Sequence record: OR296290.1
DNA length: 64,000 nt
Strand: one strand, 5' to 3'
Source of the DNA: Escherichia phage SDYTW1-F1-2-2_3
Shown here: positions 2,061-63,806 of the stretch, piece by piece
Layout: every line of letters begins with the position of its first letter
Numbering within the stretch: position 1 is the stretch's first letter
Program-made: the position numbers and the translations under genes
The notes under the pieces: model-generated
The model's database searches: none
Told to the model about the DNA's origin: nothing
The model's input: only the letters and a program-made list of their open reading frames with translations

Positions 2061-3164
2061 TTACAGCGCTTGCTCTAACTGATTTTCCAGATGATCTGGA
2101 ATGTACCCTGTGATGTTGTTATCACTGTGTCCTGACTCACGTAGCAAGTCAAAAATAGCACGGATACGTTGCTCTGGTGCAGATCGTACAGTAGATAGAT
2201 CGGTAGTACGAAGCATAACCAGAATCTCTTGGTACAAGTTGTTAGCGTTCCCTCGGACATATCCAAGGAATCCGTAGAAGTCTGAGATATGACGTAGGTC
2301 AACAAGAACTTCTCCGTTGGAGTTGGTTCGACGTAAACGAATACGACCAGACTGTTCTACTTCATGAGAACGACAATACAAAACATCACGGGCCATACAA
2401 TACCCTGAATGCAAGTCCGACTCGTCCAGATTGTAATCCAGAGGAAGGTAAGGAAGCATTGGGGCAAATCGTACAGTATTTAAATGCTCGATAAACTGAT
2501 CATTGCTCATCTCTGCGTTATCTAAAGCCAGCTTCTTCAACATCAAGAAGCGGTTAACCAGATTGAGAAGTTGACCACGTTTCCACTTAGGCTCACTGAT
2601 ACGGAACTCAATCGAACCATATTGGGCAAGTGGCAGAAGGTTCAGAGATGTATATTTATCCCATGAACGAACCAGACGGTTGAAGAACTCTTCATCGTCG
2701 TAGTTAAATGCGTCAGAGGCATTCATTACCTGTGCTTGTACCACTGCGAAAGCAGGGCAGAAGTTGCTACGGTAACGATGGTAGCCTGAACACTTGAACA
2801 ACATCTTTTCATAGAAGGTCCAAGCGAGAATGGTTTTCTTGAGGATATTACTATCAGCATCCCTCATATCCATATGAACGTGAGTAGAGCAACGCCAAGT
2901 CCCCTCGGCGTGCGATTCAGCTACAGCTTCACTCAGGTTGTTGATAGCGTCTAACAACTCCTGTCCGTTGTAAGGTCGTGAACATACCATTTCACAACCA
3001 TTACGCAGGGAACCATCCTCTGTACAATCCCACATATCTGCTTCGATATGATCGGAACCTTCGAGTTCAAGTTCAATACCGACACCGCACTGAAGTGCAA
3101 TTGAACTATGCGCCTCAGTTAAATGACCTTCTCGATATCCAAAAGTTTGCGCTACAGTTGTCAT
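2061..3164 (-). CDS. glutamine-synthetase-like amidoligase family protein (putative)
   Basis: 367-aa track ORF; GVGIELELEG and STHVHMDM motifs resemble the E-x-E and H-V-H signatures of amidoligase/GS-like ligases; adjacent to the amidotransferase gene. Confidence 0.45.
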   Translation of the reverse strand: MTTVAQTFGYREGHLTEAHSSIALQCGVGIELELEGSDHIEADMWDCTEDGSLRNGCEMVCSRPYNGQELLDAINNLSEAVAESHAEGTWRCSTHVHMDMRDADSNILKKTILAWTFYEKMLFKCSGYHRYRSNFCPAFAVVQAQVMNASDAFNYDDEEFFNRLVRSWDKYTSLNLLPLAQYGSIEFRISEPKWKRGQLLNLVNRFLMLKKLALDNAEMSNDQFIEHLNTVRFAPMLPYLPLDYNLDESDLHSGYCMARDVLYCRSHEVEQSGRIRLRRTNSNGEVLVDLRHISDFYGFLGYVRGNANNLYQEILVMLRTTDLSTVRSAPEQRIRAIFDLLRESGHSDNNITGYIPDHLENQLEQAL

Positions 3165-3778
3165 AATGAATCCACCAACGTAATATTGTAATTGCTAAGG
3201 TTTTCAGAAATGTGATGAAAGTGTTCCAGAAGTCGCATCGGTTGCTGACCGTAAGAGTCACGAGGCGCTTCCAGATCTACTTGTCCTACCAGTGCACCTT
3301 TATAATGCACCTTACCATCAGTAGGGTTGATGTAAATATAACGAGTGACCAATCCTTCGAATTCAGGATTGAACAGACTGTAAACCATCTCCCCGGAGAT
3401 AGCACGACCAACACCCGGAGCATTTCGAATCTTGTTACCCATCAAACCCTTTGCTCTCTGACGAACAGGGTTAATATGAGTCCAGCTTACAGTGTTACCG
3501 TTATGGAACAGATAACCAACATCAGGTGATTCAAGAATCAAGGTTGGGTCGAACACTGGAATATTCATCGTAGTATTTCGAAGATTCCCTTGCTCGTTCT
3601 TGTACCACTGCTCTACAACAAAGTACAGAGCCTGTTCTGCTTCGTGAGAGAAGTCATCACTGCGGAAGTTACCGCTCTGCTCAACACCAATCACAAAACA
3701 CGGAAGGTTGATATTACCTGCTCGTTTAGCAATCCATGTACCATTATAGTAATGAGAAAAATCAGCTACTAAGCTCAC
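3161..3778 (-). CDS. hypothetical protein in amidoligase cluster
   Basis: 205-aa ORF; 4-nt overlap with downstream gene; no motif recognised. Confidence 0.5.
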   Translation of the reverse strand: MSLVADFSHYYNGTWIAKRAGNINLPCFVIGVEQSGNFRSDDFSHEAEQALYFVVEQWYKNEQGNLRNTTMNIPVFDPTLILESPDVGYLFHNGNTVSWTHINPVRQRAKGLMGNKIRNAPGVGRAISGEMVYSLFNPEFEGLVTRYIYINPTDGKVHYKGALVGQVDLEAPRDSYGQQPMRLLEHFHHISENLSNYNITLVDSL

Positions 3779-3787
3779 GATAACCTC

Positions 3788-4597
3788 TTATGCTACCTGA
3801 AGGAGTTTGATCTGCTGGTCAGCTTCTTTAACGTTGTTGCCGTTAATGATTTCATGAAGCTTCTCAATCGGAAGGCGAGAGTGCAATGCCATCAGAGTGG
3901 ACATATCACACTGCTGAACAACCTTGTCAACCTGATCGTAAACAAACTTACGATTTTCACGATCACTAATCCAGAAATTAGACAGTGAACGATATTCAAT
4001 ACCGTAGTCTTTATAACGGATTGCAGACGCTTTACCGTAGAGTTCTTTACGGCGAGTATCTTTATCCATAATAACTGCTGGAAGAGATAGGAAGTAATCA
4101 CACAACACACCCAGCATCATCTGAGTTTGCAGAGTGATATCCAAAGCACCAACTACGCCGAGATGTACGTGACCACCGGCAGTACGAAGTCCCTTATTCT
4201 GAGAAGTCGGGGATGGGTTCTTCTGACCAGTGAAAGCGTTGAAATCAGGAGTGCATCCGAAGATGAACGCTGATTCATTGAAAGTCTTCATCTCTTCTTC
4301 AGTGAAGATGTGAGAGCTAACACCCGGAGCTGTTTCCATGTCCAGTTTGTTCAGGACATTGTTGGTGAGATCGATACCACGTTGCATGTTATCGTTAAAC
4401 GCTTCAAAGCCGCTCTGTGGGTCAATATCAAACTCAGCCAGTACGTTGTCCTCTTGAAGACGAACATCCTTAGCCAGAGTGATCTTATCGTCCTTAGAAC
4501 AACCTAACAGACCAGCTACAGAGGTGATAATACCATTGCTGGTACGAACGAACATTTCCGGGTCGCTTCCTATTAAGAATTTACGTTTAGTAGTCAT
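3788..4597 (-). CDS. COOH-NH2 ligase-like (GS/GCS-like) protein (putative)
   Basis: 269-aa ORF; FLIGSDPEMF and GGHVHLGV motifs resemble carboxylate-amine ligases; same operon as amidoligase. Confidence 0.4.
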   Translation of the reverse strand: MTTKRKFLIGSDPEMFVRTSNGIITSVAGLLGCSKDDKITLAKDVRLQEDNVLAEFDIDPQSGFEAFNDNMQRGIDLTNNVLNKLDMETAPGVSSHIFTEEEMKTFNESAFIFGCTPDFNAFTGQKNPSPTSQNKGLRTAGGHVHLGVVGALDITLQTQMMLGVLCDYFLSLPAVIMDKDTRRKELYGKASAIRYKDYGIEYRSLSNFWISDRENRKFVYDQVDKVVQQCDMSTLMALHSRLPIEKLHEIINGNNVKEADQQIKLLQVA

Positions 4598-5064
4598 GCT
4601 TTAGTCCAACCTTTATGAGATAGATAGTTTTTAAATCTGCCACTGTGCACAGCGCCCATGTGGCCTTGATGTAAGTCGTTGCTTCTACAGAAGTCTCTAA
4701 GATTGTATATTGTTACAACCTCGCCATCTGGAGATCTAAACTTCCAAAATCTAGCATTCCCTTTCACAGCGTTTTCTTCACTGGTCAGAAGTTGGAAATT
4801 ACTTGGGTGGTTATTAAGTTTATCACCATCGATGTGATCAACAGTCATACCATCCGGAATAGGTCCAATAAACAATTCATACATAAGTCTATGTAATAAA
4901 AAGTTCCTTGTTATCTTTTCAGGGGCTTGCACTGTTGTAAACTTTAGATAACCATCCTTATCAGGAAACAGTTTCCTCTGTTTCCCTGTTCTTGAATGGA
5001 ATATACTACCATCTTCGAACACTAAGAAGGTAGCAACTCCGACTACTAACTCCCTAAATTCCAT
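4594..5064 (-). CDS. HNH homing endonuclease
   Basis: 156 aa; VDHIDGDKLNNHPSNFQLLTSEEN matches the HNH His-Asn-His motif; free-standing between ligase-cluster genes. Confidence 0.65.
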   Translation of the reverse strand: MEFRELVVGVATFLVFEDGSIFHSRTGKQRKLFPDKDGYLKFTTVQAPEKITRNFLLHRLMYELFIGPIPDGMTVDHIDGDKLNNHPSNFQLLTSEENAVKGNARFWKFRSPDGEVVTIYNLRDFCRSNDLHQGHMGAVHSGRFKNYLSHKGWTKA

Positions 5065-47089: not shown

Positions 47090-50000
47090 ATGGCTAACAT
47101 TAAACCGTGGGAAGAAGCTTCCAAAGCTCCTGCGTATCTGAATGCCTCTCCGGAGCGTCAAGCTCAAATGAGAGAACAATATAAGGCAGCAGGTGGCTCT
47201 ATTCCTGAGGAACGACCAGTGGCACAACCACAACAAGAAGAACGTGGTGTTATTGGTGAGTTTGCTCAAGGTGTGTCAAATGCTCTTCAATCTGGTGGTG
47301 CAAACATCGCAGCTAGTACTGCTAGAGGTGTTGGTGGTTTGGTTGAGCTTGGTGAAAACCTAGCTGGAGCACAAACTAGTTATGGTAAGCGTATCCAAGA
47401 GAATGCTCAAAACCTCTTGAAAGAACGTATGGATAAGATTGAGGATGGGATTGGTAAAACTGCCGGTCAGTACGCTGGAGTGGCTGCCGATATCGGTTTG
47501 ACAGTTGCTAGCCCATTAACTGCCGCTGCTGTCATCGCAGGTCGTGAGACAGGTCGTGCATATGCAGACCAAACCCCTGAAGAGGGAGAAGATAAGTCTG
47601 TTCTGGATGCAGCTCTAGTCGGTGGTGCTAACTATGCAGCTATGAGAATCCTTCCGGGTGCTGTTGGTACAGCTGAGTCCACACTTGGACGTATTGGTCA
47701 GAACGTTGCTTCTAACGCAGTGGCTGGTGCTAAAGGTGGTGCTCTTATTGGTGCTGCTGAAGCTCAGAACAAATATGGTGATGACAATGATCTAGCTAAG
47801 ACACTAGAAGGTGTTATCACAGAAGGGGCTATGGGTGCTGCATTTGGTGGTGCAGTTGGTGGGGTTCATGGTTTGATTAGTCGTCCGGATTCTGCTGTCT
47901 TTAGGAACACTCCAGAGTATGCGAAGACTGATATTGCTGCTGATGATGAGTTGATTCGTAGTGCTAAGAATATTGATGAACTGAAAGAAGCCTACTCTAA
48001 AGCTGAAACTGCTAATGCTGCTTCTGCCCTTAATCTTCTGGATGAGAATGGATTCCGTATCACAGATGCTGTTGCTGTAGATTCTCCTGCTGCTCAGCGT
48101 ATTCTTAATACAGACCAAGCTCGTGCTGAGAAAGCTGCTTCTGCTCAGAAAGACCACTCTAACATCCCGGGCCTTAATCCTTTGGCTGCCCCTGCTAAGA
48201 CTCGTGGTAAAGCTTTCGCTGATAATGAGCACAACCAGAAACAGGCTGTTGCTATGAAAGATGCAATGGCTGATTACACCAAGGATAACACTAAAACTCT
48301 TACAGATGTTCTAGATAATCTAGATCGTGAATTAACCTCTCTCCGAGCTTCTGGTGACTTTACTGGCAGCCCGATTGATATTAAGAATCGCACACAAGCT
48401 GACCGTGATTTCATTGATGCTTACAAGACTTTCTATAATGAAGCAAACCGATTCAAAGCTCGTGATGGTGAAGACTTTAACAACTTTGTAGAGAAAGCTA
48501 CTGAGCTACAGAAGATGGCTGATAACGTTTCTCCAGAGATGAAGAAAGCTATTGGTGGGTTGAAAAAACTGAAGGGTATGCCTGAAGGTTTTAATCCTAT
48601 CCAAGACGCTTACACTCTGAACAACACAGCTAAGTTTATGAGCAACCAAGATCGTGGTTGGACTTCCCTAACTGACGACGGCTTCCGTGAGGCTTCTTCT
48701 CCTAGTCTGGTTATGAACACCCTTGGTGCTGCTAAGTATGCTCTGAATCGCTTCTCTTCTCAGCGTGCTCGCTCTCAACGTGTTAAACAACAAGAATCTA
48801 ACAGTGAAGCTATCCGCTCTCTGGCTCGTGGTGATTTGGAAGTTGCTCGTGCTAAATCTACTGCTGATGAAGCTCGTGCTAAAATGGAAGAAGAACCAGT
48901 TGTTGATGACATTAATTTTAAGACGCAAAATGACGTAGAAACCGAACCGGTTCGGGAGCCTTCTTCTAGTACTGTGACGGAAGAAAATCTTCCTTCTTCT
49001 GCTCTTCAAGATTCCCCTCTTACAGCTCGTGATTTAGTTGCGCAAAGACGTGCTATCCGTCAGGCTGAACAGCGTCGTGCTGAAGAAGAGGCGGCGGCAG
49101 CTCGAGAAGCTCCGGTTGAACAGGCTCCACAGGCTGAACCTCTCCCTGCTCGTAATCCTTTAGAGGAGCGTCGTGCAATAGAGCAGCAACGTGCTCAAGA
49201 AGAGGGCCAAAAGGCTTCATCAGAGGATGCATCTTCTGTTACTAAAGAATCCCTCTCTCACTATGCTGAAGATGGGATACTTTCTCAAGACTTAAATGGC
49301 AACATTGCTCTTCGCCTAAACCAGTTCACCCCAGCTGAGCAACAGTTTTTGCGTAACCATAATTTGGTTGACTCAAACGATATGGTCAAAGCTAGTTCTC
49401 TAAGACAAGCTGATCCATTACCTGCTCGTGCTCCTAAAGCTCCTAAGGAAGCTGTACAGGACGTTAAACCGGCAAGTGGTGTAGAACGCTTAGCTGCTAT
49501 GTCTAGTGCTGCTCGTCAGGCTACTAAAGATCGTGCAGAACGTTTTGCTCGTTCTCTGTATTCTAAGGCTGCTAAGGCTAAAGCTACTGCTGAAAACTTC
49601 TTGGCTTACAAGGGTGATCCTAAGGAATTGATGCGTCGTATTCGTCAGGAAGATAATGCTATCAACACTGAACGTCATGAAGAGATGGCTCGTAATCAGC
49701 TAGCTTCTCAGCAAGGTATTGCTACTGCTAAGAACAACACTGTACGAACTAACTTTGCTGAATGGGTTAAGGAACGTGGTCTGCCAGAAGACATTGCTAC
49801 TAAGGCATTACGTGCTGAAGAGAAAGGTTTAGGTGGGAACGTAACTAACTTGGATAGTCTTAAACGTCGTGCTGAAAGGTTGTATCAGAAGCAGCGTGAG
49901 GATGAGTTTGATAGACTGTATCAACAAGCTCTAGAAGAGAATAAAGCTTTCGACAAGAAAGATGCTCCTAAACTGGTTGACCAGAAGAAAGAGCTTCAAT

Positions 50001-52126: not shown

Positions 52127-52384
52127 CTAGATTAAATCGTAATACTGAATAATGTCAGAGAGTTTGAACTCTCGAATCTCATCTTTCTCTACATCTATCG
52201 CTGTCATAATCCAACAAGGTTTGCCACCGTTATGAAAACGGGAGCTAGCAACGGAGGTTCGGAGTGGAATAACGGACCGGTCAGCAACCTCGCCTCTCCA
52301 ATTGCGATAGCGAAAGCGAAGAACTTGTTGCGTAGATTTTTGATCATCACTCGTTTCCTTTTTTGAATTGTTTTCTTGCATCAT
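52127..52384 (-). CDS. hypothetical protein
   Basis: 85-aa track ORF. Confidence 0.45.
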   Translation of the reverse strand: MMQENNSKKETSDDQKSTQQVLRFRYRNWRGEVADRSVIPLRTSVASSRFHNGGKPCWIMTAIDVEKDEIREFKLSDIIQYYDLI

Positions 52385-52748
52385 TTTCCATCTTAGTTTT
52401 TAGTTTATGACAAGGGTCTTTACACAGAACCTGAAAACCTTCTTTCTCGCACAGAGCACGAGAGATGATTTCATCCCAAGTTGCTTCGTGGTCAAGAGGA
52501 ACTATAGGCTCTATGTGGTCAATAGCCATATCCTTTACAGGGTGGTCAGAACCACACATGGCACACTTAAAGTGCATTGCCAGTCTTCCTGTCTTTGGAT
52601 TAATTTTCTGCTCTGTCTTGGCGTCTGCTAGTGCATCGAACATAGGCTTCCACTTTCTAGTCAGAGAACGAATCCCTGACTTGATGAAAGAATTGTAACG
52701 AGCTTCAGTCCACATTCCAGAGCATCTGGTCTTCTCAGCCTTCGCCAT
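52347..52748 (-). CDS. HNH endonuclease
   Basis: 133 aa; CAMCG...HIDHIEP...CHKLK Cys/His arrangement typical of HNH nucleases. Confidence 0.5.
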   Translation of the reverse strand: MAKAEKTRCSGMWTEARYNSFIKSGIRSLTRKWKPMFDALADAKTEQKINPKTGRLAMHFKCAMCGSDHPVKDMAIDHIEPIVPLDHEATWDEIISRALCEKEGFQVLCKDPCHKLKTKMENDARKQFKKGNE

Positions 52749-52936: not shown

Positions 52937-53744
52937 TTATTCCCAAGTTTTTTCGAGCCACGACCAATCAAATAGGTCTTCCGGAGTCTGACCAACAAAG
53001 AGCAGCTGAGCATTCTCAAGCATCTTCTCTTCATCTTCAGTATCGAACTTCTTATAATATTCCATTCGTACTATATGATACATGGTCCACTTGTCTGTAA
53101 CACCAGCCAATAACTTAGCTGCTGCTTTCTTCCCTATTCCTTGACGTCGAAGCTGAAGCTTACCGCCCCACATAACTTCTTTACGTTCTCCACATCCGGG
53201 GATATTATCTGTACCATCTCCAACCAACATCTGATAGAAGAAGTTTTGCCATGAAACTAAATCAGATACATAGTGAGGAGGAACCTCTTTCTGTCTTTCT
53301 CCACAAGCCCAACGGTAGTGCCATCCGGGAGTTATCAACAAATCTTTGTCTCTAGTACAAATGATAGTGTTCTTGTCCCTACGCTGCCTTTCAGCTAGTG
53401 CATCATCAGCCTCTCTCCCAAATACATCTATGTATTCATATTTACCTTTAATATAATCACCAACATTTTGCCAGTGAAAAGGTCTCTCTCCGGGAGGTCT
53501 ATTTGCTTTGTAGTCTTGCTGCTTAGCAACATCAAAGCGGAAGTTACCACCTTCGCTGAAGTAGAACACAACCTTACTACAACCAGAGCGAGCTATGATT
53601 GTATCAATCTTATACTGAAGTCGTTCAATCATGAAATTGTAATCAACTGGAACACGTCCTGTGTCAAGAAAGGGATGCTCCTGAGTAAGAGCACCCACTT
53701 CATATCGAAGAACGTCAGCATCCACTATAGCCACTTCAGGGAGC

Positions 53745-53767
<23 letters not shown>
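52937..53767 (-). CDS. 5'-3' exonuclease / flap endonuclease
   Basis: 276 aa; FGREADDALA matches the G-x-EADD motif of the 5'-nuclease family. Confidence 0.6.
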
Positions 53768-55281
<1,514 letters not shown>

Positions 55282-56936: not shown

Positions 56937-57101
56937 TTACCATTCAAGTAAACTTTTAAAGTTAGTTTGTTCTACTATTCGCTGATAAAGAAGATTAGAA
57001 TCAGCTTGTTTCTTTAACATCTCATTATATTTATCTCTGATAGAGTCTTTATAAACTACAGGTTCTTTAAATAACGAGATCTTGTTCTTTTCTTCTTTCA
57101 T
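56937..57101 (-). CDS. hypothetical small protein
   Basis: Track ORF trimmed to ATG 57099-57101 with AGGAAGG SD. Confidence 0.3.
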   Translation of the reverse strand: MKEEKNKISLFKEPVVYKDSIRDKYNEMLKKQADSNLLYQRIVEQTNFKSLLEW

Positions 57102-57570
57102 CGAAAACCTTCCTAATCTCTTGCAGAGAAACAGCTTTATAATCAATTTGCTCCATTGATGTACAGAAGTATCTCCAATCATCAATCACATGGTTATGAG
57201 TATGAGCATAAATATTAAACTTCCCTCTCATTTCATCAGTGTGAATAGGAATATGAGTTACCCAAAACTCTTTATATTTAAAATCACCAGAGATTCTACG
57301 AAAGATTTTCATCATATCAGGGAGAAGTTCTAACCTATCATGATTCCCCAAGACCAGATGCTTCTCTCCTTTTACTTCAGCGATAATATCAAGGGCATAC
57401 TTTTCAAATACCCAATCACCGGTAAAGAAGACTTTATCACGTTTGGTTACATGATCAAAAGCAGCCAGAATTGCTTTGTCATGTTCTTCGATGTTTTTAA
57501 ATTGCTTACGAAAACTACAGATGTTGCGATGGCCTAAGTGACCATCTCCTGCAAAATAAACTTCAGCCAT
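57067..57570 (-). CDS. metallophosphoesterase (calcineurin-like)
   Basis: 167 aa; AGDGHLGH, FTGDWV and LVLGNHD motifs. Confidence 0.6.
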   Translation of the reverse strand: MAEVYFAGDGHLGHRNICSFRKQFKNIEEHDKAILAAFDHVTKRDKVFFTGDWVFEKYALDIIAEVKGEKHLVLGNHDRLELLPDMMKIFRRISGDFKYKEFWVTHIPIHTDEMRGKFNIYAHTHNHVIDDWRYFCTSMEQIDYKAVSLQEIRKVFDERRKEQDLVI

Positions 57571-58908: not shown

Positions 58909-59105
58909 CACTCTTTCTCCTCTCGTTCTTTCCACAGTTCAGCAAGTTCTAAATAAAACTCAGCTTCATCAGGACGTCCTTGTTCATTGCAGATGGCGCT
59001 CTGACGATAACACCAATCCGATGGCATCTCTTCCACTTCAATCTCCTTATTATGAACTAATCAATAAGACTAGTTCATTTGTATTTCAATCTTTCAGTTC
59101 TGGAT

Positions 59106-60950
59106 TTAGTGGGTTTGCATCCAATTCAATCCGATTTTGCAATCAGAGGCTAGCTCGCAGTGCATATTTAGGTATTCTCCAGCCTTCTTAACACATTCCT
59201 CAGCGATGGTCTTCATTTTATGAACATCATTACGGTTAACAGACCACTGAGCTTCATCATGGTAGTCAATTACTTTGTTACCTCTGATATTCTGTTGATC
59301 TACCCACTTGTTTGTGAAGAGGATAGAATACTTCATGACAATAGCACCCGCACTCTGAAGTAAAGTATTTAGTGCTTTATGAACCATAACTTTACCAGTG
59401 GCATCCCGTCTCATGGTCAACTTACGACCGTCCACACCTTCAAGAGTGCCTGTTTCTGCACGGGCTTGTACTCTCTCCAAGACAATTGGGATACAAGGGC
59501 ATTCTGCTAAGAAACGTTCTCTGAGAATTTCACCCTCTTGAGCGCCTCCTCCAACAATCTCTCCAATCTTAGCTGCGCCTGCCCCATATAGAAATCCATA
59601 GATAAAAGTTTTTGCATTATCTCTAGTTGGTAGGCCAGCTAGTTTCTGGTTGTGGGAATGGATATCACCTGAGAGAAGAATCTCTCGATAAGTATAAGCA
59701 GCCTCTAAGCCTTTCTCAGCCCTCAGATACTTAATTTTATCATTCTCTGCTTTGGCTTCTTCCATCATGTCAAGGCACTCTTTCACAAGATAGTGCACTA
59801 ACATACGCAACTCTAATCCAGAACCATCATACCCTAAGAATACTTCTTTACCAGCGGGTATGTAATATTTGTAAGCACCTACAGGTTTATCTTTCTTCCC
59901 CGGCTTACCTTTCTCATAAATTACGTTAGTACCTTTTCGTATATAACAACCATCAGGAACAACGTTAGTAATAACGAAAGGACGAGAGTGATCATCATCT
60001 GAGTTATAGTCAGACTCAAACAAACTGCGACACTCGTGACCAAACAAACCACGGGAGGGAATATTAACCACGATACGATGTTTGAATCGAAAAGTCGGCG
60101 TAGCGCAGCTGTTAGCTTCTGCCGAAAGTTTACCATCTTCGCGTTCCTTTGCTATGAGTCCACTGATAAGACCTAGCCTGTGAGCCGCTACAACGCGTCT
60201 CTTAAGCAAACTCCCGACACTCCCTAGCTCACCCCCTAACCCTTCTTCAAGAGTCTCCTCGAGGTTTGTAGGAGCTGTAGGCCACTTGTTTGAGGTAGCT
60301 AGTGCTATCTTAATCTCATCAAAAGTGATAGGTCTACGTCGGTTAGGGTTTAAACCTAAACCAAATACATAAGCCTTCATATAGTTCTTAGTCTTAAACC
60401 TAAAATGCTTCTCTAAGAACTTCCTAATATCAGCGTCAACCATCTCGGCTGTCTGCTTCTGTTTAGCATTACCTCGCATCCAAGCTGAATACCATGCTTG
60501 GTATGTTCCATACTTTCGCATATCTTTCTTGATTTCAAAAGTATTCCAAGGCTTCTTAGATACGTTAAACTCTGGAGGAAGAAAGCCCTCATCCATAAGG
60601 GCTTCTTTAACTCGTGCATCTTTCGATGGGTCAAAGTCCACGTATTCAACACAGGTGAATGCTCCACCAATGTCTTCTCTCTTAAGACCAACTCTATCAC
60701 AATAGGCTTGAGGCCACTTCTGTAAAGCTCCAGACTTCTTAAATGGCTTCATATAAGTAGAGCCATCTAATCTCATCTTAGGTAAGAGAGGAATCAATTC
60801 TTTGTCAATATTAACAATAATCTCTTTAAGGAGGTGAACATACCACCGAGCATTTCTTCGGTTGAAACTCACTCCGTGCTTCGCTTGCTTAGAGATTATA
60901 TCAGCGACAGTCATCTCTGTCAAAAATGGGAGAGCGTCCGGGTTGCTCAC
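59106..60950 (-). CDS. DNA polymerase, family A (polymerase domain only); GTG start
   Basis: 614 aa; motif A (DGSGLELRM), motif B (RDNAKTFIYGFLYGAG) and motif C (VIDYHDEAQ); GTG start with AAAGGAG SD; no 3'-5' exonuclease motifs seen. Confidence 0.75.
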   Translation of the reverse strand: MSNPDALPFLTEMTVADIISKQAKHGVSFNRRNARWYVHLLKEIIVNIDKELIPLLPKMRLDGSTYMKPFKKSGALQKWPQAYCDRVGLKREDIGGAFTCVEYVDFDPSKDARVKEALMDEGFLPPEFNVSKKPWNTFEIKKDMRKYGTYQAWYSAWMRGNAKQKQTAEMVDADIRKFLEKHFRFKTKNYMKAYVFGLGLNPNRRRPITFDEIKIALATSNKWPTAPTNLEETLEEGLGGELGSVGSLLKRRVVAAHRLGLISGLIAKEREDGKLSAEANSCATPTFRFKHRIVVNIPSRGLFGHECRSLFESDYNSDDDHSRPFVITNVVPDGCYIRKGTNVIYEKGKPGKKDKPVGAYKYYIPAGKEVFLGYDGSGLELRMLVHYLVKECLDMMEEAKAENDKIKYLRAEKGLEAAYTYREILLSGDIHSHNQKLAGLPTRDNAKTFIYGFLYGAGAAKIGEIVGGGAQEGEILRERFLAECPCIPIVLERVQARAETGTLEGVDGRKLTMRRDATGKVMVHKALNTLLQSAGAIVMKYSILFTNKWVDQQNIRGNKVIDYHDEAQWSVNRNDVHKMKTIAEECVKKAGEYLNMHCELASDCKIGLNWMQTH

Positions 60951-60966
60951 TTTATACTCCTTTGAA

Positions 60967-61389
60967 TTATTGGTAAATCAAATCCGTAAATGCTTGATTG
61001 TCTTCTATCACATCTAACACGGTAGCTTCATAACTGTAAGCCCTAACCGCCCCGTTAACAACTATCCGAGGAGTAGGTGGAGGTGGTTCATGGTTAGCCC
61101 TAGCTTCACGAGGTTGCTCTCGTACTAGATGAGCCACAACCCTTTGGTTGGCGACCTCTTCTCTTTCTCGGATAGCTCTCTGGATGTAAGCCAACTTCAT
61201 GCCCCAAGCTTCTTCGAACTCTTGAGGGTGCTTATCGCTGATAACTACATACTGACGATCAGGGATACCAGAGCGAATCTCTGATAATAGCTCATGGAAC
61301 AAATCCAGTTCATGTTCAGTGAGATTCATTTCGATATCATCCCACTTGAGAACTAGGAATCTGTTTTGGTGTCTAGTTGGTAGTGGCAT
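60967..61389 (-). CDS. hypothetical protein
   Basis: 140-aa track ORF upstream of polymerase. Confidence 0.45.
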   Translation of the reverse strand: MPLPTRHQNRFLVLKWDDIEMNLTEHELDLFHELLSEIRSGIPDRQYVVISDKHPQEFEEAWGMKLAYIQRAIREREEVANQRVVAHLVREQPREARANHEPPPPTPRIVVNGAVRAYSYEATVLDVIEDNQAFTDLIYQ

Positions 61390-63301: not shown

Positions 63302-63486
63302 TCAGTAAGAGACCACAGAGAGTCACCTATGTTGGCATTGTCATTCCTGATGAGGTCTTTGATTTTATCAACATCAGTTAAGTGAGTCACATTCAAAATA
63401 TCCTCAACATCCGGGGTATATTTAAATATGGCAACAATACTGTTGTGATCTTCAGCATATCTTTCTAGAACATAAACTACGCTCAT
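63286..63486 (-). CDS. hypothetical protein
   Basis: 66-aa track ORF. Confidence 0.4.
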   Translation of the reverse strand: MSVVYVLERYAEDHNSIVAIFKYTPDVEDILNVTHLTDVDKIKDLIRNDNANIGDSLWSLTEWTLW

Positions 63487-63806
63487 GCGACGTTAACCTC
63501 TTTATGAAGTCTGTAAACGGCTGTCGCCATACAAGCAACAGCCTCATTGTATGGGAGATGCATACCTGTAGAACCATCCCAATCTTTAAACTCGTTGTCA
63601 AAGACTCCAGTAGGCTCTGGATACAAGGCTTGCAACTCAACCAAATCGTTAGCAACTTGTTGCCATTTATCATCAGACCAGATAGGGTCATCCAACCAGT
63701 AATACAAATAGGAATGGATGATCAATTGCCTTCTGTGCCGATTAATTACTTCAGCGGGACTTATCTCACTTCCATTTGAAGTCCTAAATGTATTACTGTC
63801 AATCAT
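63483..63806 (-). CDS. hypothetical protein resembling the N-terminal Ia domain of NAD-dependent DNA ligase
   Basis: RHRRQLIIHSYLYYWLDDPIWSDDKWQQVANDLVELQALYPEP resembles the LigA domain Ia signature; no adenylation KxDG motif. Confidence 0.35.
   Translation of the reverse strand: MIDSNTFRTSNGSEISPAEVINRHRRQLIIHSYLYYWLDDPIWSDDKWQQVANDLVELQALYPEPTGVFDNEFKDWDGSTGMHLPYNEAVACMATAVYRLHKEVNVA

Follow-up and report, generated by a model that had tools for sequence, protein, structure and literature searches.

The window analysed here, a 64,000-nucleotide stretch of Escherichia phage SDYTW1-F1-2-2_3 (OR296290.1), represents the genome of a Kuravirus (phiEco32-like, Gordonclarkvirinae) podophage of E. 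coli less about 11 kb. On the map of the related phage 172-1, its first position falls at about 64.2 kb, within the glutamine amidotransferase gene, and from there it crosses the record ends and stops at about 53.1 kb. The gene studied here, which codes for a DNA polymerase chain, is listed in Table 1 together with its motifs, its insertions and a 5′-3′ exonuclease gene of the same replication module. Its nucleotide identity to about 90–95 Kuravirus genomes is 87–95%, and elsewhere in the window the corresponding values are 91–99%; the last 24 kb are 91–94% identical to the best-matching Kuravirus genomes, and for the first 3 kb the identity reaches as much as 99.3%. The window polymerase protein found no exact-sequence match in public assemblies, and the 99%-identical protein P0001 was used as a stand-in.

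Table 1. Features of the polymerase gene and the separate 5′-3′ exonuclease gene (window coordinates; residue numbers refer to the 614-aa protein)
Feature	Position	Strand	Description
Polymerase subunit CDS	59106..60950	-	614 aa; split T7-like family-A DNA polymerase; thumb, palm and fingers only
Shine-Dalgarno AAAGGAG	60957..60963	-	6-nt spacer (TATAAA) to GTG
Insertion 1 (versus T7 gp5)	60279..60557	-	Residues 132-224, 93 aa; mostly helical; thumb region, after T7 ~359
Insertion 2	59862..60014	-	Residues 313-363, 51 aa; beta-rich (short beta-strands); just before motif A
Motif A	59793..59843	-	Residues 370-386, VFLGYDGSGLELRMLVH; D375, E380 = T7 D475, E480
Insertion 3	59703..59777	-	Residues 392-416, 25 aa; helical; just after motif A, second half of protein
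Motif B / O-helix	59583..59624	-	Residues 443-456, RDNAKTFIYGFLYG; R443/K447/Y451/Y455 = T7 R518/K522/Y526/Y530
Motif C	59247..59267	-	Residues 562-568, DYHDEAQ; H564/D565/E566 = T7 H653/D654/E655
5′-3′ exonuclease	52937..53767	-	FEN-like, 276 aa; same replication module; PHROG 107 'exonuclease', E 3.4e-65

The GTG at 60950–60948 is the earliest possible start downstream of an in-frame stop. An earlier note on this DNA had proposed that translation begins there, behind a strong AAAGGAG site, and the conservation of the region agrees with this proposal: the stretch from the ribosome-binding site to the GTG is unchanged in three relatives (Bas92, VTCCBPA_211 and Logan contig L003), and within the 16 nt preceding the start codon, the sole difference among these relatives is one base just 5′ of AAAGGAG. 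The GTG start, the ribosome-binding site and the length of the polymerase are all the same in the Kuravirus relatives as in the window gene. Upstream lies an ORF of 140 aa (60967–61389), which was said to supply no exonuclease motifs; consistent with this statement, a Pfam scan of this ORF gave no match, and it belongs to a PHROG of unknown function. The assignment of a separate 5′-3′ exonuclease to 52937–53767 is likewise borne out by the PHROG match of its product, together with a Pfam 5_3_exonuc_N hit of 26.4 bits that lies below the cut-off of 34.3, and a PDB sequence search with this protein returned no match.

Polymerase motifs and the exonuclease boundary

As the earlier note had read from the letters, the 614-aa ORF carries polymerase motifs A, B and C, all of which map onto catalytic residues of T7 gp5. 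This mapping relies on a MAFFT alignment of 60 homologues with T7 gp5, where most of the catalytic residues of the three motifs are invariant across the 60 homologues and the C-terminal H614 corresponds to T7 H704. Motifs A, B and C, the tyrosine at the position of Y526 and the C-terminal histidine are thus features that the window polymerase shares with T7 gp5 (PDB 1T7P, 2AJQ, 6N7W). The Pfam family DNA_pol_A (PF00476) matches residues 363–611 with 74.2 bits (cut-off 34.3) and is the only Pfam family found in the ORF at E≤0.1, and PHROG 17, 'DNA polymerase', extends over residues 8–613 (E 1.3e-73). T7 gp5 is the closest solved relative by sequence, by profile and by fold: its chains are the nearest solved matches in phmmer searches (E 4.6e-37), the profile alignment produced by hhalign has an E value of 1e-110 and reaches T7 H704, and the top 27 matches of an AlphaFold2 model in a Foldseek search of the PDB are all T7 DNA polymerase (best E 2.6e-25). 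According to this model, which was built from the 60-sequence polymerase alignment (mean pLDDT 92.5, pTM 0.82), the ORF is predicted to fold as thumb, palm and fingers. Judged by its sequence, it is an active-looking T7-type family-A polymerase of the T7 gp5-like branch.

T7 gp5 is a single chain of 704 aa that holds its exonuclease in cis (residues 1 to about 200), whereas the exonuclease domain is absent from the window ORF. The earlier note had claimed that Exo I, II and III motifs of a 3′-5′ exonuclease are missing from the N-terminal 300 residues or so and had suggested alignment with T7 as a check; the alignments and the HMM search agree with the claim. In the MAFFT alignment, residues 1–206 of T7 gp5 have no counterpart in the window polymerase. 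In the hhalign profile alignment, the window polymerase is gapped opposite T7 residues 1 to about 195, and the protein begins with “SNPDALP-FLTEMTVADIISKQAKHGVSFN” opposite T7 “TTFWSESLEAVDIEHRAAWLLAKQERNGFPFD”. Residue 2 is accordingly aligned to T7 gp5 at about 195–207, just past the end of the exonuclease domain. When the alignments A1 and A2 are compared with hhalign, the exonuclease columns of A1 come from fused homologues, and the row of the window protein consists entirely of gaps there, so that this comparison carries no information on the window protein.

Pfam finds nothing in the N-terminal 360 residues, and the N-terminal part exceeds the polymerase domain of T7 by about 145 residues that T7 lacks, which would leave room for a divergent but intact exonuclease domain concealed in the N-terminal 300 residues or so. 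However, such a domain is extremely improbable. Residues 2–131 and 225–312 align to the T7 thumb and palm segments 207–359 and 360–455, respectively, and the roughly 145 extra residues are discrete insertions rather than a hidden domain, namely two separate segments, one mainly helical and the other composed of short beta-strands. Moreover, the exonuclease-family HMM and the exonuclease domain of T7 match nothing in the polymerase ORF, no exonuclease-family Pfam domain was found in it at E≤0.1, and the invariant columns of the polymerase family contain no DxE...D...YxxxD pattern in the N-terminal region.

Among the matches listed, polymerase homologues down to about 35% identity contain no exonuclease Pfam domain, none of the 42 exonuclease-less homologues that were aligned has an N-terminal extension, and fused exonuclease-polymerase homologues are seen only below about 35% identity. 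A deficient polymerase of the Taq Pol I type, in which the exonuclease fold is kept and the DEDD residues are lost, was considered and rejected: the chain starts past the domain boundary, and the window polymerase has no exonuclease-like segment at all that could represent a vestigial fold.

Insertions and the thioredoxin-binding region

Relative to T7 gp5, the window polymerase gains three insertions (Table 1). Insertion 1, with a length of 49–93 aa, is present in all 42 exonuclease-less homologues aligned, and the same is true of insertion 2, at least as a remnant (9–55 aa), while neither occurs in any of the 18 fused homologues. LUZ24-like homologues of 546–548 aa have shorter forms of both, and insertion 3 is restricted to the closer exonuclease-less homologues. 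Since the split proteins form one clade, the association between insertions and split represents a single evolutionary event, with no independent replication. It is conceivable, if rather doubtful, that the three insertions are docking surfaces that replace the covalent link by binding the exonuclease subunit and/or the phage thioredoxin.

Concerning the latter, the thioredoxin-binding region of T7 gp5 (262–338) has a partial counterpart in the window polymerase, from which 31 residues are missing: residues 57–131 or so align to T7 262–359, and T7 265–283 and 307–318 are absent (MAFFT). The relatives encode a thioredoxin of their own (91 aa; in L003, located in the region that is missing from the window), and the phage thioredoxin of C3-morphotype phages has been hypothesised to pair with the T7-like polymerase (PMC7881722).

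The exonuclease gene of the relatives

All relatives examined contain a stand-alone gene for a T7-type 3′-5′ exonuclease of 184 aa, which lies 7–9 kb upstream of the polymerase gene on the same strand, with about 24 other genes in between. In Bas92, the product of this gene (Bas92_0056) is annotated as 'DNA polymerase exonuclease subunit', a name that GenBank and RefSeq records already use; the gene follows the primase/helicase gene, and some 7 kb separate it from the polymerase gene downstream. In the RefSeq record of phage 172-1, the exonuclease subunit gp093 is encoded at 58910–59464 and the polymerase at 48052–49896, and the exonuclease gene occupies positions 406–960 of L003, an assembly contig of 72 kb that encodes a polymerase 99% identical to that of the window.

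The stand-alone exonuclease of L003 matches PF01612 with 36.6 bits (cut-off 23.6), and the 184-aa protein aligns to T7 gp5 residues 1–196/199. Its Exo I residues D11 and E13, Exo II residue D67 and Exo III residues Y151 and D155 correspond to T7 D5, E7, D65, Y170 and D174. These five catalytic residues are invariant in 31 sequences (T7 included), and this invariance spans an exonuclease clade that has diverged to 30–35% identity. Each of the 50 exonuclease homologues from the database likewise stands alone as a protein of 105–212 aa. The two genes also travel together, in that close copies of the exonuclease occur in about 97 phage records and those of the N-terminal region of the polymerase in 98, and several metagenomic contigs of identical length appear in both match lists. 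The exonuclease gene shares 7 nt with the primase/helicase gene in Kuravirus; in the Bruynoghevirus Ab22, this overlap amounts to 17 nt, and the order primase/helicase, exonuclease and, further on, polymerase is common to both. This overlap suggests that the exonuclease may be co-translated with a component of the replisome.

In the window itself, searches for such a gene were negative. Searched by tblastn with the Bas92 replication proteins, the window gave matches to the ligase-like protein, to PhoH and to the polymerase but to no other, the exonuclease and the primase included. The 979 six-frame ORFs of the window gave only noise in phmmer searches, whether the query was the Kuravirus exonuclease or T7 residues 1–200 (E of at least 0.39); the best E of an HMM built from 31 exonuclease sequences was 0.39, and its positive control reached 2.5e-86. 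No DEDD, DnaQ or RNase T domain emerged when 26 window ORFs were scanned with Pfam. In 172-1, the equivalent of the missing 11 kb or so contains the genes for thymidylate synthase, a DNA-binding protein, dCTP deaminase and a nucleotidyltransferase, and furthermore those for the exonuclease subunit, the primase/helicase and gamma-glutamyl cyclotransferase as well as a RimK-like gene. The exonuclease gene would therefore fall in the part outside the window, where the author of the earlier note could not have seen it. By analogy with these relatives, we infer that the genome from which the window derives also carries the 184-aa exonuclease gene.

Proofreading and its possible sources

As far as the alignments can tell, the exonuclease, which extends to about T7 199, and the polymerase, which begins at about T7 195–207, are collinear with one complete T7 gp5. 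The ORF is thus very probably the polymerase subunit of a two-gene replicase of the T7 gp5 type, as found in Kuravirus, with the proofreading exonuclease encoded separately. According to this reading, an ancestral gene for exonuclease and polymerase would have come apart in the interdomain linker, around T7 199–207. The thumb-palm-fingers part would now be encoded by the window gene, and the DEDD-type 3′-5′ proofreading domain would have become the separate 184-aa protein whose gene shares nucleotides with the 3′ end of the primase/helicase gene. The two proteins may associate non-covalently into a T7-like holoenzyme, in which the exonuclease would edit the primer terminus in trans in the way that the T7 domain does in cis. 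The 5′-3′ exonuclease would be a third separately encoded activity.

The split T7-like polymerase of phiEco32-like and LUZ24-like phages is already known. Polymerase and proofreading 3′-exonuclease were described as separate genes in all LUZ24-group phages in 2012 (PMC3517423), a similar organisation was, according to the citation given there, reported for phiEco32 by Savalia in 2008, and the separation was later found to be common to all Kuravirus-like phages as well as 7-11, Privateer, Vp_R1 and BUCT695 (PMC9965538, 2023). The window gene equals the polymerase genes of the Kuravirus pairs (YF01 gp49 and gp70; 172-1 gp066 and gp093; Bas92_0038 and Bas92_0056) and shows no substantive difference from them, the exonuclease gene being expected outside the window. 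Bruynoghevirus (LUZ24/PaP3/tf-like) has a synteny like that of Kuravirus, with a primase/helicase gene, an overlapping gene for the exonuclease subunit and then the polymerase; there, however, the polymerase has only about 545 aa, is about 38–40% identical to that of the window over the N-terminal part and is encoded about 1.9 kb from the exonuclease gene, and the polymerase gene of LUZ24 contains an intron (PMC3517423). New in the present analysis are the precise mapping of the breakpoint onto T7 gp5 and the observation that the insertions are limited to exonuclease-less homologues.

The earlier note had offered two readings of the missing domain: either the replicase is deficient in proofreading, or this activity is supplied in trans. 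The second fits the evidence, since all relatives encode an intact stand-alone exonuclease; the first, and with it the idea that a replicase lacking an exonuclease would affect the mutation rate, is not supported. A replicase truly without proofreading would require that the stand-alone DEDD exonuclease serves in repair, recombination or the breakdown of host DNA. This alternative, which we consider improbable, fits the lack of an exonuclease domain in the polymerase ORF and the distance of 7–9 kb between the genes, and our literature searches found no experiment demonstrating an association of exonuclease and polymerase, nor any biochemical study of the split enzyme of the phiEco32/LUZ24-like clade. 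Against it, the two halves complement each other relative to T7 gp5 without gap or overlap, and the catalytic residues of the exonuclease have all stayed invariant across its diverged clade. In addition, the gene pair co-occurs in Kuravirus, 7-11-like, Privateer-like, Aeromonas, Vibrio and LUZ24-like phages, and the exonuclease gene is apparently coupled in translation to the primase/helicase gene of the replisome. Complementary halves, invariant catalytic residues, co-occurrence and synteny together make proofreading in trans the supported reading.

It is much less probable still that proofreading comes from another nuclease, either a 167-aa metallophosphoesterase (57067–57570) or the epsilon subunit of the host. 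The former is encoded 1.5 kb downstream of the polymerase gene and belongs, according to Pfam, to the calcineurin-like phosphoesterase superfamily, which includes the 3′-5′ exonucleases Mre11/SbcD and archaeal PolD DP1. However, nothing ties this phosphoesterase to the polymerase, its PHROG (547) is filed under 'other', and a dedicated exonuclease subunit of the T7 type is present in all relatives. We give hardly any credence to a single-chain enzyme whose halves are joined post-translationally or by recoding (split intein, frameshift or mis-called start): although mobile elements do invade the polymerase gene in relatives, as in VTCCBPA_211, where an HNH-type ORF interrupts motif B, no start codon lies between the preceding in-frame stop and the GTG, the ORF upstream of it is unrelated, the meeting of the two halves near T7 195–207 leaves no room for intein halves, and the genes are far apart, with many others between them. 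As a side observation, when the interrupted polymerase gene of VTCCBPA_211 was compared with Rfam, the sole match was to a group I intron and stayed below the threshold.

Returning to a polymerase and an exonuclease that act together as separate proteins, DnaE and DnaQ of E. coli offer a working analogy only. There, polymerase and DEDD exonuclease are also separate and act as a complex, and the separately encoded exonuclease (epsilon) proofreads for the replicase; however, the Pol III alpha subunit is a family-C enzyme unrelated to the window polymerase, and epsilon binds to it via the PHP domain. In the phage, the roughly 24 genes between exonuclease and polymerase mean that the stoichiometry and the timing of the two subunits may differ. 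Given that translation of the exonuclease is apparently coupled to that of primase/helicase and that its gene lies far upstream of the polymerase gene, the ratio of exonuclease to polymerase, and with it fidelity, could vary during infection.

For the annotation of these genomes, the correct label for the gene is “DNA polymerase, polymerase subunit” and not an error-prone replicase, and an elevated mutation rate inferred from the window alone would be wrong. Beyond this, the significance is small, as the missing domain is an ordinary property of this phage group. Nevertheless, the split T7-type enzyme offers a natural way to ask whether proofreading by a family-A polymerase needs the covalent link between exonuclease and polymerase, and the lineage-specific insertions are a concrete place to seek the interface between the two.

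Polymerase insertions and the T7 thioredoxin-binding segment

Relative to T7 gp5, the 614-aa polymerase subunit carries three insertions, whose distribution we followed in an alignment of 60 homologues (A1). The first is present in all 42 exonuclease-less homologues and the second is retained in 42/42, at least as a remnant, while the third is confined to the closer exonuclease-less homologues; none of the three occurs in the 18 fused exo+pol homologues of this alignment. The thioredoxin-binding segment of T7 is kept only in part, with T7 residues 265-283 and 307-318 missing. Relatives encode a thioredoxin of their own, whose gene precedes that of the T7-like polymerase by approximately 5 kb; this locus lies beyond the window as judged by synteny with L003, a contig whose polymerase is 99% identical to the one studied here.

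Features in the window and in relatives (L002, Escherichia phage VTCCBPA_211)
Feature	Location	Strand	Details
Three polymerase insertions vs T7 gp5	within window 59703-60557	-	residues 132-224, 313-363, 392-416
Thioredoxin gene of relatives	L003:4668-4943		91 aa; PF00085, E 2e-13
Insert in polymerase gene	L002:4350-5036		~690 nt; 164-aa HNH-like ORF inside
PD-(D/E)XK endonuclease and T4_Y13H-like genes	L003:11856-12478		140 and 63 aa; immediately 3' of polymerase gene
HNH endonuclease gene	window 4594-5064	-	HNH_3, 62.5 bits
Putative HNH endonuclease gene	window 52347-52748	-	weak HNH_5 match; HNH annotation in the relative Bas92
Short NAD+-ligase-type protein	window 63483-63806	-	107 aa; PF22745, 121 bits
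Calcineurin-like metallophosphoesterase	window 57067-57570	-	167 aa; PF00149, PHROG 547
Amidoligase and COOH-NH2 ligase genes	window 2061-4597	-	PF12224, PF14395
Putative sigma factor	window 54377-55021	-	214 aa; weak sigma-70 region 2 match

Polymerase-gene interruptions and possible mobile elements

Whereas the polymerase gene in the window is uninterrupted, that of VTCCBPA_211 (PP989838.1), a relative at 95% identity, is split within motif B, after approximately residue 449, between KTFI and YGFLYG. Against the Rfam Intron_gpI model, the interrupted gene gave only a sub-threshold match (19.4 bits vs 50, E 0.027); an intron has been noted in the polymerase gene of LUZ24 (PMC3517423). Since N-terminal polymerase fragments of 437-460 aa are numerous in the protein database (P0013, P0015-17 and P0052-67), the interruption seen in VTCCBPA_211 appears to be common. 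Downstream of the gene (window 59080-59106), the window lacks both the PD-(D/E)XK endonuclease gene and the T4_Y13H-like gene of L003, a presence/absence polymorphism that may be the trace of a mobile element. The early and replication genes of the window are interspersed with at least two free-standing HNH endonuclease genes.

Other enzymes and hallmark genes

The metallophosphoesterase gene sits within the replication gene cluster. The 107-aa protein consists of the NAD+-ligase N-terminal Ia domain and nothing else, and is far too short for the label "DNA ligase" used in relatives; it may act on, or together with, host LigA. Counterparts of the 214-aa protein are annotated in relatives as phage RNA polymerase sigma factor, and its gene, together with the amidoligase and COOH-NH2 ligase genes, is a hallmark of the phiEco32 group.
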